A DNA stretch of 8,190 nt from a virus. Lineage: Duplodnaviria; Heunggongvirae; Uroviricota; Caudoviricetes. This document shows, in pieces, positions 2,335 through 8,190 of this stretch. How positions within the stretch are numbered: position 1 is the first letter of the stretch; every line of letters starts with the position of its first letter. The stretch lies in the IMG/VR virus record IMGVR_UViG_2609459797_000006, one strand, 5' to 3'. Position numbers and translations under genes: made by a program. The notes under the pieces were generated by a model that was not told where the DNA came from, ran no database searches, and worked only from the letters and a program-made list of their open reading frames with translations.

Positions 2335-2536
2335 TGTAAGCCTCCCGCGCCTTCACCAGCTCGCCGATAGATTTGTGCAGCAGAGACATAATTGCTCCGA
2401 CACGGCACGCTTCCTCACGGTGTTCTTCACCGTCGGGAATGCTGTCAATCCACATGCTCAGCACAGACATTGCGCACTCACTTTCTGAAAGGGCATTTTC
2501 AGCGTGCATCAGGACTTCAAAAGGAACCTGTCTCAC
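2321..2536 (-). CDS. Small hypothetical protein (71 aa), GTG start overlapping the upstream stop (GTGA)
   Basis: GTG at 2534-2536 preceded by GGAGAG; the stop TGA of the upstream 64-aa ORF overlaps this start, indicating translational coupling. Acidic, Cys/His-containing sequence; no family recognised. Confidence 0.5.
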   Translation of the reverse strand: MRQVPFEVLMHAENALSESECAMSVLSMWIDSIPDGEEHREEACRVGAIMSLLHKSIGELVKAREAYSAKS

Positions 2537-2727
2537 TTTGTCTCTCCCATGTGCAGCTCGGCGATTAATGCCCGGTGAATTTCCTGATTAAAATCACACG
2601 CAATAGAAATCAGATTCAGCAGCGTTTCTGAACATTCAGCAGAGGCTTTTTCCAGGATGGTTTCGTAAAGTGATGAAGCCAGCGCTGATTTATATTCGGC
2701 CTGCTCCAGACAGATTGGCTCACGCAT
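2533..2727 (-). CDS. Small hypothetical protein (64 aa)
   Basis: ATG at 2725-2727 preceded by a strong AGGAGG Shine-Dalgarno at ~6 nt; the start overlaps the stop of the upstream ORF (ATGCGTGA). No family recognised. Confidence 0.6.
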
Positions 2728-2911
2728 AGCGAACCTCCTGAACTGGTAGACGGCCAGCGCATACCATCACGCAGCCAGCCGGTGATTGCTCACGGGCTTC
2801 GCGCTCAGTGTTAGCTGTGATGTGAATGACGTTGCGACCGATGGCGCTCAGTGCAAGAAAACGCCAGATGTAGGACTTCCGCCCTTGCGGGTGTGTGATA
2901 TGATCTTTCAT
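2720..2911 (-). CDS. Small hypothetical protein (63 aa; [18 protein letters not shown]...), first gene of the minus-strand operon leading to the helicase/primase
   Basis: Chosen start is the ATG at 2909-2911 with GAGG 6-9 nt upstream. The listed 324-aa ORF (2720-3694) extends this frame upstream across the opposite-strand RHH gene and looks spurious there. An alternative ATG at 2996-2998 lacks a Shine-Dalgarno. Confidence 0.45.
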
Positions 2912-2999
2912 AGCTGCCTCGTTACTTTCGCTAACGGTGGTGGTTAGAGGCCCGGTTAGTGTTCCACCACTGCCGGGCTTTGCTTTACTAAAAGTCATG

Positions 3000-3057
3000 C
3001 AATGTAGTACATTGTCAACTCCACTACAGACTAGACCACAGGAGTTGACAATGTCAA
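3000..3057. promoter_or_regulatory. Divergent promoter/operator region with nested palindromes built on TTGACA/TGTCAA half-sites
   Basis: Seen directly: perfect 15-bp palindrome CAATGTAGTACATTG (3000-3014); perfect 13-bp inverted repeat CATTGTCAACTCC (3010-3022) / GGAGTTGACAATG (3041-3053) with an 18-bp spacer; palindrome TTGACA-A-TGTCAA (3045-3057) spanning the RHH start codon. Lies between divergent genes. Confidence 0.55.
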
Positions 3058-3224
3058 CAAGCGAAAATAAAGAGCGCCATGTTGTGCAGCTCAGACTCGA
3101 TAAAGAACTGTCAGAGCGGCTCGCTTTAGCGATGAAAGAAGACGGTGACGATAATAAGTCGGGATGGATAAAACGCCTTTTGCGCCGTGAACTTGATAAG
3201 CGCGGCATCGAGCCAAAAGGCTGA
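3051..3224 (+). CDS. Small ribbon-helix-helix (CopG/Arc/Mnt-like) DNA-binding protein, 57 aa; candidate repressor of the divergent replication operon
   Basis: ATG at 3051 preceded by AGGAG (3042-3046). Sequence [50 protein letters not shown] has a beta-strand-then-two-helices layout typical of RHH proteins. Fold inferred from sequence pattern only. Confidence 0.55.
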
Positions 3225-3543
3225 ACAGGGTTACTCCCCGTAATGCTGTGGACTGCCCCTCTTAAAAAGGGTCTGTTTTGCGCAACTATTAATGAGTTGT
3301 GCAGAGGCTCCCCTCTTAAAGAGGGTTGGTTATCTTCGCAGCTCTCTACGTTTTTCGTCGGAGCCTCTAAACCACGTTTAACGTTGTTTTGCCATGAACC
3401 CGAATACTGTTCGCCTTTGTCTCGATCTCCGTACGTTAAACGTACGCGGTTAATTTGTGCGTACGGATTTCGTCGGCTCAAGGTTTGACCACCAGCGGCA
3501 AGCCTGGTAATCTGGCGATGTTTCTGTAAAGCGGTATTGCACT

Positions 3544-3571
3544 GGCGGCCCGGCATGGCCGCCTTTGTTTT
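3544..3571 (+). terminator. Rho-independent terminator on the plus strand (GGCGGCC-CGGCAT-GGCCGCC followed by TTTGTTTT)
   Basis: Perfect 7-bp GC stem with 6-nt loop and T-rich tail, seen directly. Sits ~320 nt downstream of the RHH stop and just outside the 3' end of the convergent 230-aa gene. Confidence 0.55.
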
Positions 3572-3576
3572 GCCTG

Positions 3577-4269
3577 TCATACAATAGCCTCCACTTTCAG
3601 CCCGCCAGCGGTATACCCCTGAACCCGAACACCATCGACGCGATGACGCTTTTTCGTCAGAAAGCGGATGTGATCTGCGTAGACGTACTGCCATTTACCA
3701 TCGAGTGCCACACGTTTAAACCACGGATGAGGCTTAGATATGGTCTGGACAACTGGCGCGGAAGCCTTGCAGGGCGTGGGTTCTGCTGTGCATACCCCCT
3801 TATCGTTACCCGTTACTCTATACAGCCAGTAACTTGCCAGCTTCCCGGTCAATTTACGGGTGCGCACGGGGATATAACCCGCCTCACGCATCGCCTTACC
3901 AAAAGTGGCATCGTCCGGGTAATACTGGCGGCGTAGTTCCGTAGATACTGAAACGGCAAAGCTGCGTTTAGTCGGGTATTCCTGCCACTGGCCGACAAAT
4001 TCAAAAGGAAGACCATTAACCCTTCCTTTGGTCTTGTCCTTGCCGCTTATCCCTACATCATGGTCTGCCTCATGCACGGACACGCCGGAACGCAGCCACA
4101 CCAGCCCGTTACCGTTGTGGCGCAACCCCAGATCGGCAAGCGTAAATTCACCGCGATTAATGGGCGACCAGTCACCGGAAATAACCTGTTTACGGTTCGC
4201 TGAAATATCGTGCTGGCTGGCTACAGGGTGAGCGAATCCCTGCCCGTGGAGGGCATTAATCTTTTTCAT
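3577..4269 (-). CDS. Hypothetical protein, 230 aa, encoded immediately downstream of the AlpA-like gene
   Basis: Uninterrupted ORF with ATG start 20 nt downstream of the alpA-like stop. No catalytic motif recognised; family not assignable by eye. Confidence 0.65.
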
Positions 4270-4289: not shown

Positions 4290-4574
4290 TTAAGCAGATT
4301 TACGGCTGTATGGGTTATTGACGTTCTCTACTGCTGGCGGATTACGAACCCACCAGAGCACATCCGAAAGAAGCCAAGCACAGCTATTGCGGCCAAAGTG
4401 ACAGCGCGGAGGGAAGCGCCCCTGCTGCTCCATCTTCCAGCGGCTGGAACGGGAAAGACTGGTGATCTCGCTGCATTCATCTTCACGGATTCGGCGATCA
4501 AACTTAAAGCCGTACTCTTCTAAAAGGGTGCGGCGCTGTTCAGGATTTGGCGGGGTAAAGGTTATATTTTGCAT
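4290..4574 (-). CDS. AlpA/Vis-family phage regulatory protein (MerR-type HTH; transcriptional activator/excision regulator), 94 aa
   Basis: GGAGG Shine-Dalgarno 5-6 nt before the ATG at 4572-4574. Region ...SEITSLSRSSRWKMEQQGRFPPRCHFGRNSCAWLLSDVLWWVRN matches the AlpA pattern (LSRST-Y...G-FP....G...W...-V--W). The family includes E. coli CP4-57 AlpA and P4 Vis, recalled from memory. Confidence 0.75.
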   Translation of the reverse strand: MQNITFTPPNPEQRRTLLEEYGFKFDRRIREDECSEITSLSRSSRWKMEQQGRFPPRCHFGRNSCAWLLSDVLWWVRNPPAVENVNNPYSRKSA

Positions 4575-4623: not shown

Positions 4624-4699
4624 CCAGAATTTCCATTGATTCTGGAATCCTTTAAAAGAACATGCAATTCCATTGAAAGATAGAAATTCCATCAAGATA
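4624..4699. promoter_or_regulatory. Repeat motifs upstream of the alpA-like gene: inverted repeat CCAGAAT-N8-ATTCTGG and three copies of TTCCATYRA
   Basis: Seen directly: CCAGAAT 4624-4630 / ATTCTGG 4639-4645; TTCCATTGA 4631-4639 and 4668-4676; TTCCATCAA 4691-4699. Lie 50-125 bp upstream of the alpA-like start. Function inferred. Confidence 0.35.
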
Positions 4700-4830
4700 A
4701 CGCTCCCCTGTTTAAAACAGTTTCCACAGTAATTTCAACGGCTGTCTCGAGAGAAAAAATCATGAATTTCAATAACTCGCCGAAGATCACCGTTCTTTAA
4801 CGATTTGATTCACCTTGGATTGTTCATAAC

Positions 4831-5030
4831 AAAGATGAACAATGATGAACGCTGATGAACAGTGATGAATAACCATGAACAAAGATGGAAAAAGTTAGCA
4901 AGTAATGACCTAGTAGGGACCGTGGATGGAGCTAGGTATTGTTAGGTGCTGTCGGGTGCCGTTACGTGTCATAACGTGTCATTACGTGTCGTTGAATGCT
5001 GTTGAATGCTGTTGAATGCTGTTGAATGTA
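4831..5030. repeat. Array of twenty phased 10-bp tandem repeat units in successive sub-families (ATGAAC-type x6, GGTGCT-type x3, TTACGTGTC x3, GTTGAATGCT x4), followed by very AT-rich DNA (5031-5164); candidate replication origin or protein-binding array
   Basis: Seen directly: 4831-4890 aaagatgaac/aatgatgaac/gctgatgaac/agtgatgaat/aaccatgaac/aaagatggaa; 4931-4960 gctaggtatt/gttaggtgct/gtcgggtgcc; 4961-4990 gttacgtgtc/ataacgtgtc/attacgtgtc; 4991-5030 gttgaatgct x3 then gttgaatgta. Strict 10-bp register throughout. No ORF present. Confidence 0.8.
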
Positions 5031-5164
5031 ACGGTAATACACATCAAATATAACAATTGAATCTCCTTGGCGATCATAGAATCGCCAAAAGCTCCAACAA
5101 ATATAATTAATTAGTATTTTCACATGAAATATAAATAATACCTACTAACACTGCAAAATAATAT

Positions 5165-5815
5165 TCATTCCGTATAATAAATCGAATTTAATGCCTTTCG
5201 AATTTTCTCATATATTGCTGATTTAGATAATCCAGTTTTAGATATACCTTCCTCATCAGCTAATTTATATAGTTCGTTTAAAATAGCCGAGATGCTTGGT
5301 TTTTTAGAGGTGCCAAACGAATGGCCTATCTTATGTGCTATAAGCTTGACCAGCATCCCCATTAATTTATCATTATATTCCTTTTCATCTTCTTTACGAT
5401 GCAAGCCGCGTTTGCTGCTTTTCAATGCAATTCCGACCTGTAAAAGCTCATCCCCTCCCATAGCATAAAGATGCTCTTTTCCTTTGTTTTGATTAGCAAT
5501 TATAGCCACCGCCGCAAGGCATCTGTCCTTTATGGGTTGTGGTGTAATATCTTCATCAATAAGAGGATATGCCAGAGCAAACATATAGTCTGCGGGATAG
5601 GCTGTTGAGTTTCCACCTCGAAATAATTTAGATGCTGATAACCATCTACTCAGTTGTCGATAGTATATATTGTAAGCTTCAACTTTCGCTTCAGGGATAT
5701 CAGCAGTTTTAACTGTCGGATCTACCCCACACATAAGTAGTGCAAGTTGTTTAATATTTAGCTCCGGGGCTTTGGCTTCTCGCTCGAAAATACCCAATTT
5801 TAGAAAACTAGTCAT
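5165..5815 (-). CDS. Hypothetical protein, 216 aa, AT-rich, translationally coupled to the integrase (TAATG overlap); possible C-terminal HTH
   Basis: ATG at 5813-5815 overlaps the integrase stop TAA (5815-5817). Base composition visibly more AT-rich than flanking genes. C-terminal segment ISKTGLSKSAIYEKIRKA resembles a helix-turn-helix. No known family recognised. Confidence 0.7.
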   Translation of the reverse strand: MTSFLKLGIFEREAKAPELNIKQLALLMCGVDPTVKTADIPEAKVEAYNIYYRQLSRWLSASKLFRGGNSTAYPADYMFALAYPLIDEDITPQPIKDRCLAAVAIIANQNKGKEHLYAMGGDELLQVGIALKSSKRGLHRKEDEKEYNDKLMGMLVKLIAHKIGHSFGTSKKPSISAILNELYKLADEEGISKTGLSKSAIYEKIRKALNSIYYTE

Positions 5816-7035
5816 TATTCAGCCTTATTCAACAAAACAATGTTAGTGAATCCACCTGATAAAATATCAAGTCTGTCATACCATTTATTCAACGCATCCA
5901 GTTTCTCAGGCAAGTACAGACTACGGTTATAAATCGCCATGACTCCCGGCATTGAGTGCCCCAGCAACTGTTCGACAACGTGTGGTGCTATACCCATATT
6001 ATTCATATGCGTTGCTAAAGTTCGTCTTAGATCGTGCAGTGTCCATGGTTCAGAATGCCCTAGCTTTTTATAAACGCCGCGGCCCCACTGACTTACCGCT
6101 TCACTGCCTTTAACCGACCCAAGCAAAAGGCCGGATCGTTTCGTTTCATCATGCAGTATTTCAATGAATTTGCGCATGGCATCCGGCACAGGTCTTACAA
6201 TCTTCTCGCCACCCTTGCTGTGCTCTTTGGGAACTGTCCAGACCCAGGCATCCATATCCCATTCACTCCACTCTGATAGCCTGGCCTCCTGCGTTCGGCA
6301 CCCAAACACTATTAAGATTGTCAGTAGCCTGGTGTAGTAAGGCATGAAGCAAGTGCCAGAGGAAATGGCAGCCCATAAATCGCCAGCCTCTTTATCGTTT
6401 AATACCCGGTCTTTTTTTGCCTGTTTTTTACCGACATCTGGAATTGTTAAATCTTCAAGCGCGGTACTCACAGCATAGCGACGAACCCGGCAGAATTTCA
6501 GGGCTTGTTTGCACATCTGGAACACATAACCTGCGGCGACTGGAGTTTTCTTTTTCATCCTGTCAAAGCAGTCAAGCCAGTATCGTGTTTCACAGTCAGC
6601 GAGCGCCATTTTCCCTATATAAGGATAAATGTGTTTTCGCAGCTCCGCTTTGTGCCGTTCAACATTCGCGCGGTTCTCTTCTGCATATTCGCGTATCCAG
6701 TATTCTATAGCTTCCTTAACAGTGACCGGTTTAAGGGTTTCCTGAGTAGTCAACGCCAACTGGTGCTTTGGATCTTTACCTGAGGCCAGCCACTGGCGGC
6801 ATTTATCACGCGATGAACGGGCTTCTTTGAGGCTCATATCCGGGTATCGTCCCAGAGTCAGACGATGCAGCTTCTGCCCGTCAAGTCGGTAAGTAAACAC
6901 CCAGCTAATACCACCAGCTTTAGTTACCTTGGCGCTCAGCCCGGCACCATCAGCATAGAACTCAATCTTACTGGCCGGGATACCATGTAATCCCTTTAAC
7001 TTCCTGTCGCTCAGTTTGTTAAGTTCCCCAGCCAT
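5815..7035 (-). CDS. int: P4-type tyrosine integrase (site-specific recombinase), 406 aa
   Basis: N-terminal segment (SDRKLKGL...KIEFYADGAGLSAKVTKAGGISWVFTYRLDGQKLHRLTLGRYPDMSLKEAR) matches the P4-integrase arm-binding domain pattern. C-terminal region carries HDLRRT (His-x-x-Arg) and GHSMPGVMAIYNRS (catalytic Tyr). ATG at 7033-7035. Confidence 0.9.
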   Translation of the reverse strand: MAGELNKLSDRKLKGLHGIPASKIEFYADGAGLSAKVTKAGGISWVFTYRLDGQKLHRLTLGRYPDMSLKEARSSRDKCRQWLASGKDPKHQLALTTQETLKPVTVKEAIEYWIREYAEENRANVERHKAELRKHIYPYIGKMALADCETRYWLDCFDRMKKKTPVAAGYVFQMCKQALKFCRVRRYAVSTALEDLTIPDVGKKQAKKDRVLNDKEAGDLWAAISSGTCFMPYYTRLLTILIVFGCRTQEARLSEWSEWDMDAWVWTVPKEHSKGGEKIVRPVPDAMRKFIEILHDETKRSGLLLGSVKGSEAVSQWGRGVYKKLGHSEPWTLHDLRRTLATHMNNMGIAPHVVEQLLGHSMPGVMAIYNRSLYLPEKLDALNKWYDRLDILSGGFTNIVLLNKAE

Positions 7036-7053
7036 AGACCACCCAGCCCAAAG

Positions 7054-7142
7054 TGTTTATACAAATGTTTATACAGAATTGCTTGCATAATAGCATAAAC
7101 AAAGAAAAACACTGGAACAATATACAGGCATGAATTTATACA
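7054..7142. promoter_or_regulatory. Integrase upstream region with direct repeats TGTTTATACA (7054-7063, 7066-7075) plus TATACAG (7121-7127) and TTTATACA (7135-7142); candidate int promoter elements and/or arm-type Int-binding sites
   Basis: Repeats seen directly. On the minus strand they read TGTATAAAC, resembling extended -10 elements 20-40 bp upstream of the int start. Their position between int and the element end is where P4-type arm sites are expected. Function inferred. Confidence 0.4.
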
Positions 7143-7205
7143 ACGCATTGATTATTATATGAATATTAAAATCATCTAAAAGCATGAAAACAGCTAATAT
7201 GACAG

Positions 7206-7220
7206 TACGGCATGAACTAA
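7206..7220 (+). other. fis: Displaced 3' end of fis (TACGGCATGAACTAA = Y-G-M-N-stop) marking the element/chromosome junction (att core region)
   Basis: The 15-mer encodes the Fis C-terminus and is followed by the native fis terminator and yhdJ. Immediately upstream the frame hits an in-frame TGA (7200-7202) and unrelated AT-rich sequence, so homology to fis stops here. Recalled fis/yhdJ locus, not searched. Confidence 0.5.
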
Positions 7221-7249
7221 TTCAGGTTAGCTAAATGCTTGATTAAAAA

Positions 7250-7281
7250 GGCGCTACTCGGCATGGGGAAGCGCCTTTTTT
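7250..7281 (+). terminator. Rho-independent terminator (GGCGCT...AGCGCC stem followed by TTTTTT), the fis terminator
   Basis: Stem GGCGCT 7250-7255 / AGCGCC 7270-7275 and T6 run 7276-7281, seen directly. Position matches the fis-yhdJ intergenic terminator as recalled. Confidence 0.7.
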
Positions 7282-7305
7282 ATAGGTGTCACAAAGGGAG
7301 TGACC

Positions 7306-8190
7306 ATGAGAACAGGATGTGAACCGACCCGGTTTGGTAATGAAGCTAAGACCATTATTCACGGTGATGCCCTTGCCGAACTTAAAAAGCTACCTACTGA
7401 AAGCGTCGATCTGATCTTTGCCGACCCACCGTATAACATCGGTAAAAATTTTGATGGTCTGATCGAAGCCTGGAAAGAAGATCTGTTTATCGACTGGCTG
7501 TTTGAAGTGATTGCAGAGTGCCACCGCGTTCTGAAAAAGCAGGGCAGCATGTACATTATGAACAGTACGGAAAACATGCCCTTTATCGATCTCCAGTGCC
7601 GCAAGCTTTTTACCATCAAAAGTCGCATCGTCTGGTCATATGACAGTTCTGGAGTACAGGCGAAAAAACACTACGGCTCCATGTACGAACCCATCCTGAT
7701 GATGGTGAAAGACGCAAAGAACTACACATTCAACGGTGATGCTATTCTGGTAGAAGCCAAAACCGGATCGCAGCGCGCGTTGATCGATTATCGCAAAAAT
7801 CCTCCACAGCCATACAATCATCAAAAAGTACCGGGTAACGTCTGGGATTTTCCGCGCGTGCGTTATTTAATGGATGAATATGAGAACCACCCGACGCAAA
7901 AACCGGAAGCCTTACTGAAACGCATTATTCTCGCCTCTTCCAACCCAGGCGATATCGTTCTCGACCCGTTTGCCGGTAGCTTTACTACCGGTGCCGTAGC
8001 CATCGCCAGCGGACGAAAATTCATTGGTATTGAGATCAACAGCGAGTACATCAAAATGGGGCTTCGACGGCTGGATGTCGCGTCGCATTACTCCGCGGAA
8101 GAACTGGCGAAAGTGAAAAAAAGAAAGACGGGCAACCGGTCAAAACGATGCCGGGTTAGCGAAGTTGACCCCGATCTCATTGCAAAGTAA
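7306..8190 (+). CDS. yhdJ: DNA adenine (N6) methyltransferase YhdJ, 294 aa
   Basis: Sequence MRTGCEPTRFGNEAKTIIHGDALAELKK...DLIFADPPYNIGKNF...LDPFAGSFTTG recognised as E. coli YhdJ, with DPPY catalytic motif and SAM-binding motif in beta-class order. ATG at 7306 with AGGGAG Shine-Dalgarno preferred over the GTG at 7300 listed in the ORF track; TAA at 8188-8190. Confidence 0.85.
   Translation: MRTGCEPTRFGNEAKTIIHGDALAELKKLPTESVDLIFADPPYNIGKNFDGLIEAWKEDLFIDWLFEVIAECHRVLKKQGSMYIMNSTENMPFIDLQCRKLFTIKSRIVWSYDSSGVQAKKHYGSMYEPILMMVKDAKNYTFNGDAILVEAKTGSQRALIDYRKNPPQPYNHQKVPGNVWDFPRVRYLMDEYENHPTQKPEALLKRIILASSNPGDIVLDPFAGSFTTGAVAIASGRKFIGIEINSEYIKMGLRRLDVASHYSAEELAKVKKRKTGNRSKRCRVSEVDPDLIAK

Follow-up and report, generated by a model that had tools for sequence, protein, structure and literature searches.

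A small ribbon-helix-helix-type gene as candidate repressor of the icd-primase operon in a PICI-type satellite

The window, that is, the whole 8,190-nt stretch of DNA analysed here, carries an island that adjoins yhdJ. With one exception, the island genes listed here lie on the minus strand: a tyrosine integrase (int, 5815-7035), a 216-aa gene (5165-5815), an AlpA-family gene (alpA, 4290-4574; Phage_AlpA, E = 5e-10), a 230-aa gene without a family (3577-4269), an icd-like gene that is the first of the regulated operon (2720-2911; NCBIfam phage_ICD_like, E = 4e-15), and a D5-type primase with D5_N, DUF5906 and Pox_D5 domains (390-2159). Small ORFs and a DUF4222 gene also belong to this minus-strand replication module. 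The sole plus-strand gene encodes a 57-aa protein of ribbon-helix-helix (RHH) type (3051-3224) and is divergent from both the icd-like gene and the primase. An IS1 fragment (the C-terminus of InsB) at positions 1-252 cuts the island 137 bp past the primase gene. The 97.6% identical island of E. coli OW1E2 (L001) continues past the primase into genes for an HK97 major capsid protein and a prohead protease, and so does a mosaic relative from FDAARGOS_1283 (L002), which is the layout of a capsid-forming PICI.

An integrase, an alpA gene, a unidirectional replication module bearing a primase and a dedicated chromosomal site make up the layout of Gram-negative PICIs, and all are found here. An Icd/Kil-like first gene precedes the primase, and a homologue of Vis/AlpA is encoded further upstream on that strand. 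The island is a satellite of PICI type and not a P4. An Rfam search of the window yielded no C4, isrK or a1b1 at gathering scores, and up to an E-value of 10 only chance-level matches to symR and L20, whereas the identical search of P4 returned C4 (74.9 bits), isrK (60.8) and a1b1 (44.1). We therefore rejected a P4-like RNA immunity for this island. The original prediction had presented a protein repressor at this place as a departure from the RNA-based immunity of P4; that framing was mistaken, since the island is of PICI type and has no match to C4/CI, isrK or a1b1. Three arrays of 10-bp tandem repeats (4828-4887, 4964-4990 and 4991-5028, with consensus units AACAATGATG, ACGTGTCATA and GTTGAATGCT) occupy the 590-bp gap upstream of alpA, and they could be binding sites for AlpA or a helper factor, or iterons.

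The icd-like gene is preceded by a structured 5' leader (2912-2986, minus strand) with one hairpin at 2950-2978 and a second at 2920-2936, beside the ribosome-binding site. This leader has ~81% identity in many E. coli islands and is common to islands with differing RHH cassettes. Covariation supports its structure: 90% of cells pair, compared to 28-43% in slid controls, nine pairs have changed on both sides, and none of 500 shuffles matched this. The leader matched no Rfam family. Between the two hairpins, UCUAACCA is invariant and single-stranded. On the other side of the RHH gene, the plus-strand sequence GCCTCTAAACCAC (3363-3375) approximates the reverse complement of GTGGTTAGAGGC in the leader (2940-2951). 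A leftward read-through RNA could hence pair with the conserved UCUAACCAC of the leader, a correspondence that may be due to chance.

About 350 nt of non-coding DNA (3225-3576) follow the RHH gene on its 3' side. A terminator-like plus-strand hairpin is present at 3311-3335 and a stronger terminator at 3544-3573; at other loci, a clear terminator-like hairpin comes after the stop codon of the RHH gene. The same stretch contains a direct repeat, CCCCTCTTAAA(A/G)AGGGT, at 3256-3277 and 3310-3331, as well as a perfect 17-bp palindrome, CGTACGTTAAACGTACG, at 3430-3446, with a third CGTACG at 3460-3465, between the RHH gene and the 230-aa gene. The palindrome is also found in L002 and resembles the ACGTACGTAC repeats of the cassette of that island. 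Only close relatives have kept this non-coding stretch, and unrelated genes occupy the zone elsewhere.

The 57-aa ORF starts 6 nt downstream of a Shine-Dalgarno sequence read as AGGAG (3040-3044), the GGAG of which is kept at the loci of the window's own protein class (class A, comprising 14 distinct loci with protein identities down to 78%). It has 102 homologues at 72% identity or more across the Enterobacterales, in genera that include Klebsiella, Citrobacter, Morganella, Serratia, Yersinia, Pectobacterium, Xenorhabdus and Regiella. All of these are without a name, and RefSeq labels the 57-aa protein itself a 'hypothetical protein'. Among 40 aligned coding sequences, pS reaches 0.8-1.0, near saturation, while pN is 0.06-0.17, and the less diverged pairs give a dN/dS of ~0.03; invariant Arg and Leu positions are encoded by up to six codons. 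Judged by this dN/dS and by the 102 homologues, the ORF is a real gene. In some E. coli genomes, a feature annotated as 'Icd-like protein' covers the 3' part of an RHH homologue, suggesting mis-annotation or a fusion.

The AF2 monomer model of the protein (pLDDT 78) has helices at residues 18-31 and 36-51, and its top fold matches are RHH proteins, namely Arc, CopG, NikR, AmrZ and omega. The protein agrees with a strand-helix-helix fold of ~45 residues, and the N-terminal strand was not assigned in the monomer model. Profile searches were less clear. RHH_1 scored 14 bits (E = 0.05), below its curated cut-off of 20.5; RHH_10 matched 10 of 29 family members with E-values of 0.007 or worse; NikR and YlcI_YnfO_N matched the family weakly; and a sequence-profile search of the PDB with the 57-aa protein found no RHH match. 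Since no curated profile threshold was reached, we place the protein in a branch of the RHH superfamily outside the curated families, with a predicted fold that is RHH-like. The RHH-like character that had been claimed for it thus holds for the modelled fold but not at the level of curated profiles. By alignment with NikR, the residues of the strand that face the DNA would be V11, Q13 and R15.

The 57-aa protein shows weak matches to RHH folds of the RelB, MazE and VapB types. RefSeq moreover labels its sister protein in L002 a HicB family antitoxin, and the Icd-like product is potentially toxic. On these grounds the protein might be paired with the Icd-like division inhibitor, as its antitoxin or in some other accessory role. 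We consider this very improbable, however, because the two genes are divergent and not co-transcribed, the protein ends 6 residues past helix 2 and so has no C-terminal toxin-binding extension, and the same RHH cassette precedes unrelated first genes at other loci. A type II antitoxin of the HicB, RelB or CopG type was rejected on gene orientation, protein length and the finding of no toxin family adjacent to the gene.

For a survey of the promoters of the region, 78 related loci were drawn from genomes, metagenomes and viral contigs; their upstream regions comprised 52 distinct sequences. All promoters and transcription starts reported here are predictions, the promoter calls coming from a weighted -35/-10 scan of ~50 distinct loci. 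The leftward promoter, P_left, has the -35 hexamer TTGACA at 3057..3052 and the -10 hexamer TAGTCT at 3033..3028 on the minus strand, with an 18-nt spacer and a predicted start at ~3021. It is the best minus-strand promoter and occupies the same position in nearly all of the ~50 loci. The rightward promoter, P_right, is the RHH gene's own: its -35 hexamer TTTACT (2984-2989) and -10 hexamer TACATT (3008-3013) are separated by 18 nt, its predicted start lies at ~3020, and in most loci it outscores all other plus-strand candidates. Across loci the two take the forms TTGACA-N16-18-TAnnnT and TTTACT-N18-TACATT and score best at fixed positions. The P_left -10 keeps TAnnCT in class A (TAGTCT, TAATCT, TAACCT and TAGCCT) while neighboring bases vary; in the class of 58-aa proteins (class B) it is TATATT, with a 16-nt spacer. 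An earlier consensus-type scan of 2600-3700, which demanded at least four of six matches in each hexamer, reported no promoter, since TAGTCT matches the consensus at only three of six positions.

The P_left -35 lies within the RHH gene. It corresponds to positions +6 to +1 relative to the ATG and is the reverse complement of the TGTCAA in ATG-TCA-Axx. Every one of 51 unique coding sequences has TCA as its second codon, while another conserved Ser is encoded by four codons, which argues that the gene start is frozen at the DNA level by a promoter on the opposite strand. We thus read the TGTCAA over the start codon as the predicted -35 of a sigma-70 promoter that drives leftward transcription of the leader, icd-like gene and primase. 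On the other side, GTACATTG, ~43 nt upstream of the ATG, is nearly invariant in protein classes A-D and holds the TACATT of P_right. The TTGACA/TGTCAA copies had been described as nested palindromes; the palindromes are real, but the copy at the start codon is also the predicted P_left -35, and GTACATTG likewise contains the P_right -10. Two further hexamers were rejected as promoters: the plus-strand TTGACA at 3045-3050, which would fire inside the gene, has no acceptable -10 (TAAAGA) and occurs in class A only, and the minus-strand TTGACA at 3018..3013 has no -10 (ACTTTT). With predicted starts that almost coincide, P_left and P_right are interleaved and should be mutually exclusive.

Three dyad elements overlap these promoters. 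The left dyad (3000-3014) is a 15-bp palindrome, CAATGTA-g-TACATTG, the right half of which contains the P_right -10. An inverted repeat follows, with a left arm ACATTGTCAACTCC (3009-3022) and a right arm GGAGTTGACAATGT (3041-3054), each of 14 nt, 100% complementary and separated by a gap of 18 nt. Its left arm, which we propose as the left operator, overlaps the -10 and start of P_right as well as positions +1 to +13 of P_left. The right dyad (3044-3058), GTTGACA-a-TGTCAAC, is a 15-bp palindrome centered on A3051 of the ATG and the proposed operator over the P_left -35 and the start codon. The original prediction had named all three, and all three are present; the arms are, however, 14 nt rather than 13 nt long, and the start-codon palindrome measures 15 bp rather than 13 bp. 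When 2912-3080 was shuffled 2000 times with its dinucleotides preserved, no perfect inverted repeat exceeded 11 nt, and two or more palindromes with 7-nt arms arose in 7 of the 2000 shuffles. The set of dyads is far beyond chance.

Throughout the 8.19-kb window, the 11-mer ACATTGTCAAC and the palindrome are confined to this single locus, besides one chance-level match with two mismatches at 7553-7563, and a motif scan found no further operator copies around alpA or int. The two 11-mer sites are ~35 bp apart, or 39 bp if the right site is taken to be the direct copy with one mismatch at 3048-3058. The right dyad is identical in 14 of 14 distinct class A loci. Within this class the arms of 11-14 nt are constant, also in the diverged loci L019 and L031, and the 18-nt gap varies except for TAnnCT. 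Class A and some class B loci retain the CAATG-N5-CATTG of the left dyad. Each dyad combines a predicted core promoter hexamer with a class-specific mirror half, so that the symmetry is in part promoter sequence to which class-specific half-sites are added. The class-specific halves, all invariant within class A, are GTTGACA at 3044-3050 (plus strand), CAATGTA at 3000-3006 and TCAAC(TCC) at 3015-3022.

A repeat of this length might also act as RNA. The 14-nt arms fold at -20.5 kcal/mol on the plus strand (z = -5.4) and at -21.6 kcal/mol on the minus strand, and the right arm holds the GGAG and AUG while the left arm holds a CUCC. The hairpin could accordingly hide the ribosome-binding site and AUG of the RHH gene in a longer plus-strand transcript, or mark a site of processing or pausing in leftward read-through transcripts from the alpA operon. 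Both predicted starts lie inside the gap, however, and so each primary transcript would lack one of the arms; RNA beginning at 3020 reaches a folding energy of just -6.3 kcal/mol (z = -0.85). The CUCC/GGAG pairing is missing from locus L004, no run of T follows the hairpin on either strand, and the two separate palindromes would be left unexplained. We regard a role of the repeat as RNA as quite unlikely.

Comparison of the window with L002 shows how the region changes between close relatives. The int/yhdJ region, alpA, icd with its leader, and the primase are 92-97% identical between the two islands, and the sole replaced segment comprises the operators and the body of the RHH gene (2987-3203 in the window, 5386-5619 in L002). 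The L002 protein is 40% identical to that of the window, has the strand TFQIRI, and matches YlcI_YnfO_N and an Arc-like PHROG. Its locus contains ACGTACGTAC twice, one copy abutting the ATG and the other on the presumed -10. By this sequence comparison, the replacement has the appearance of an immunity-cassette-like swap, in which protein and repeats were exchanged together between two islands at one chromosomal site. Class D proteins (47-51% identity, strand KQIAFRV) are accompanied by GTGTCAGACAC in three places: GTGTCAG(ACAC) occurs in the spacers of both the gene's own and the leftward promoter, and also at the start sites. The proteins of class B have the same predicted DNA-facing residues as class A, V11, Q13 and R15, and their loci do not have the class A dyads. 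Either specificity resides elsewhere, for example in the N-terminal arm, K18 or S37, or the dyads are not the recognized sites. A half-site G[AT]CAAC shared by the two classes was considered and rejected: class A has three copies, and many class B loci have only the copy in the -35. Some class B loci have three direct copies of it with a 10-bp period. At the Kosakonia locus L007, the RHH cassette and leader adjoin a Thoeris-like defense system (TIR and SIR2-SLOG) and a TacA/GNAT toxin-antitoxin pair (4698-7844 and 2441-3235), and no alpA or primase homologue was detectable there.

A similar arrangement is found in other E. coli PICIs. EcCICFT073 (CFT073 1377930-1388654) and four further islands, among which the replication proteins differ, have a small gene of the YlcI/YnfO family ~200 bp from the Icd-like gene and divergent from it. 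Their intergenic regions have a scaffold in common, with TTGACG/TTGAAG-N17-18-TAnnnT on the icd side and gtgTATACTg on the other. The island-specific motifs are CATGAAACACAC, ACTGGATTCCAGTA, GTGTCTTACAC and, for EcCICFT073, AGGTGTGGCCCAC. Loci L082, L083 and L084 each have their own ~12-bp motif three times, two copies flanking the icd-side -10 and one following the other -10, and EcCICFT073 (L081 5653-5853) has two exact copies of AGGTGTGGCCCAC and a degenerate third. Against the YlcI/YnfO family NF041551, with its curated cut-off of 30 bits, the window protein yields no match; scores of 17.2 bits were obtained for a class C relative, 30.1 for the protein of L002 and 67.4 for that of CFT073. 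Because hhalign found no homology between the window family and the CFT073 protein, the equivalence of the two genes is positional and architectural only.

These comparisons bear on the question of whether the dyads are operators at all. They might be mainly promoter architecture, in which the interleaved promoters share symmetric hexamers that set the competition for RNA polymerase, while the RHH protein exerts its effect at other sites, such as helper phage DNA, or has only a weak effect at this locus. Such a role would account for the conservation of TGTCAA and TACATT in all protein classes whatever the RHH variant, and for the different flanks that class B combines with the same reading residues. 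It would not account for the class-specific halves, which are not promoter hexamers and yet stay invariant in class A while the gap diverges, nor for a plus-strand TTGACA that has no usable -10. The repeats, furthermore, change together with the protein in L002, in class D and in the YlcI-type islands. We therefore judge a mainly architectural role unlikely.

We consider it probable that the 57-aa protein represses both its own gene and the leftward icd-primase promoter, in the manner of the RHH repressors Arc/Mnt at P22 immI or CopG at Pcr, and constitutes a maintenance or copy-control switch of the satellite. This reading is the best supported, since the gene is real, the modelled fold is of RHH type, the dyads fall on promoter hexamers, and operator and protein are exchanged as a cassette. 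The same comparative evidence favors the autoregulated repressor of a divergent replication operon that was originally proposed, but several findings count against it. A promoter hexamer, for which conservation is expected in any case, makes up half of each dyad, and class B has the same predicted DNA-reading residues and none of these dyads. The consensus-type scan reported no promoter here, the protein stays below the curated RHH threshold, and the N-terminal strand was unassigned in the monomer model.

We propose that the protein, as an RHH dimer or a pair of dimers, occupies the dyads at 3000-3022 and 3041-3058; DNA binding, the choice of sites, repression and its bypass by AlpA are all inferred. 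P_left would fire leftward into the structured leader, the icd-like gene and the primase operon, and P_right rightward into the RHH gene, with RNA polymerase at one promoter at a time given their predicted starts at ~3021 and ~3020. Protein on the right dyad would cover the P_left -35 and thereby switch the replication genes off. On the left dyad it would cover the -10 and start of P_right, resulting in negative autoregulation, and would sit at positions +1 to +20 of P_left. The two 11-mer sites may cooperate. As a repressor, the protein would in this way control the maintenance or copy number of the satellite. Induction probably circumvents it: transcription from the helper-induced AlpA promoter upstream would run leftward, antisense through the RHH gene and into the operon, much as the P4 late promoter bypasses P4 immunity. 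Such read-through is a likely bypass. No minus-strand terminator was found between the 230-aa gene and icd, and overexpression of AlpA alone sets off pri-dependent replication in EcCICFT073 (PMC6092414).

The founding paper of 2018 left open whether Gram-negative PICIs have a global repressor (PMC6092414), and later surveys describe immunity RNAs and Bro proteins in this zone and no RHH protein (PMC10111431). No paper in the searchable literature was found to connect PICI regulation with a protein of the RHH or YlcI/YnfO type. RHH repressors that act at overlapping promoters are a known kind of regulator; for this class of satellites, that literature describes none. More broadly, and only tentatively, the enterobacterial PICIs, including capsid-forming ones and EcCICFT073, may have a minimal-RHH master repressor divergent from the icd-replication operon, with exchangeable cassettes of protein and operator that set island-specific immunity, and with helper induction by AlpA-driven antisense transcription rather than by inactivation. 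If true, this would answer the 2018 question. The RHH gene is a testable candidate for what keeps the satellite silent, avoids runaway replication and perhaps excludes related islands, and the RHH cassettes could provide a compact, orthogonal set of repressor/operator pairs.

Known systems resemble the proposed switch to different degrees. The Stl/Rpr repressors of Gram-positive PICIs (SaPIs) are, like the window candidate, satellite-encoded and divergent from the replication/packaging operon that they would silence. Stl proteins are large helix-turn-helix proteins. In contrast, the window protein is a minimal RHH protein without an obvious sensor domain. Stl is inactivated by binding helper proteins (PMC6092414), while the induction of Gram-negative PICIs is attributed to AlpA. 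P4 shares with the window an AlpA/Vis homologue upstream, an early promoter, a leader, an icd-like gene (icd/kil) and a primase. In both, the replication genes must be silent when integrated, and a late upstream promoter probably bypasses the block. The P4 leader is, however, ~330 nt long compared to ~110 nt in the window, and the P4 annotation shows no divergent RHH gene in the interval from vis to PLE.

The YlcI/YnfO genes of EcCICFT073 and other E. coli PICIs match the window in their place between alpA and the replication operon, in their divergence from icd, in the same conserved leader and in having island-specific repeats on both promoters. Their intergenic regions are ~200 nt with the promoters back to back, whereas that of the window is ~140 nt with the promoters interleaved. 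No function has been published for either the window protein or the YlcI/YnfO protein.

CopG of pMV158 and ORF56-type RHH proteins recognize a pseudo-symmetric element of ~13 bp that overlaps the -35 box of a promoter for replication genes; CopG represses the very promoter from which its gene and repB are transcribed together. Like the window protein they are RHH proteins (~45-57 aa for the group as a whole), and in each case dosage-dependent control of replication would result; structural alignments with the window protein give sequence identities of 11-26%. Unlike CopG, the window candidate is not the first gene of the replication operon but divergent from it, with a promoter of its own.

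In the immI region of P22, the RHH repressors Arc and Mnt act at the overlapping, opposed promoters Pant and Pmnt. The window differs in that its protein has no detectable sequence homology to Arc or Mnt, in encoding one protein and not two, in controlling an operon of an Icd-like protein and a primase rather than an antirepressor, and in placing a -35 hexamer inside the first codons of the repressor gene. Common to both are small RHH proteins and operators on the core elements of two overlapping, opposed promoters and, as we propose for the window, binding that represses one promoter, shifts the balance to the other and results in negative autoregulation.
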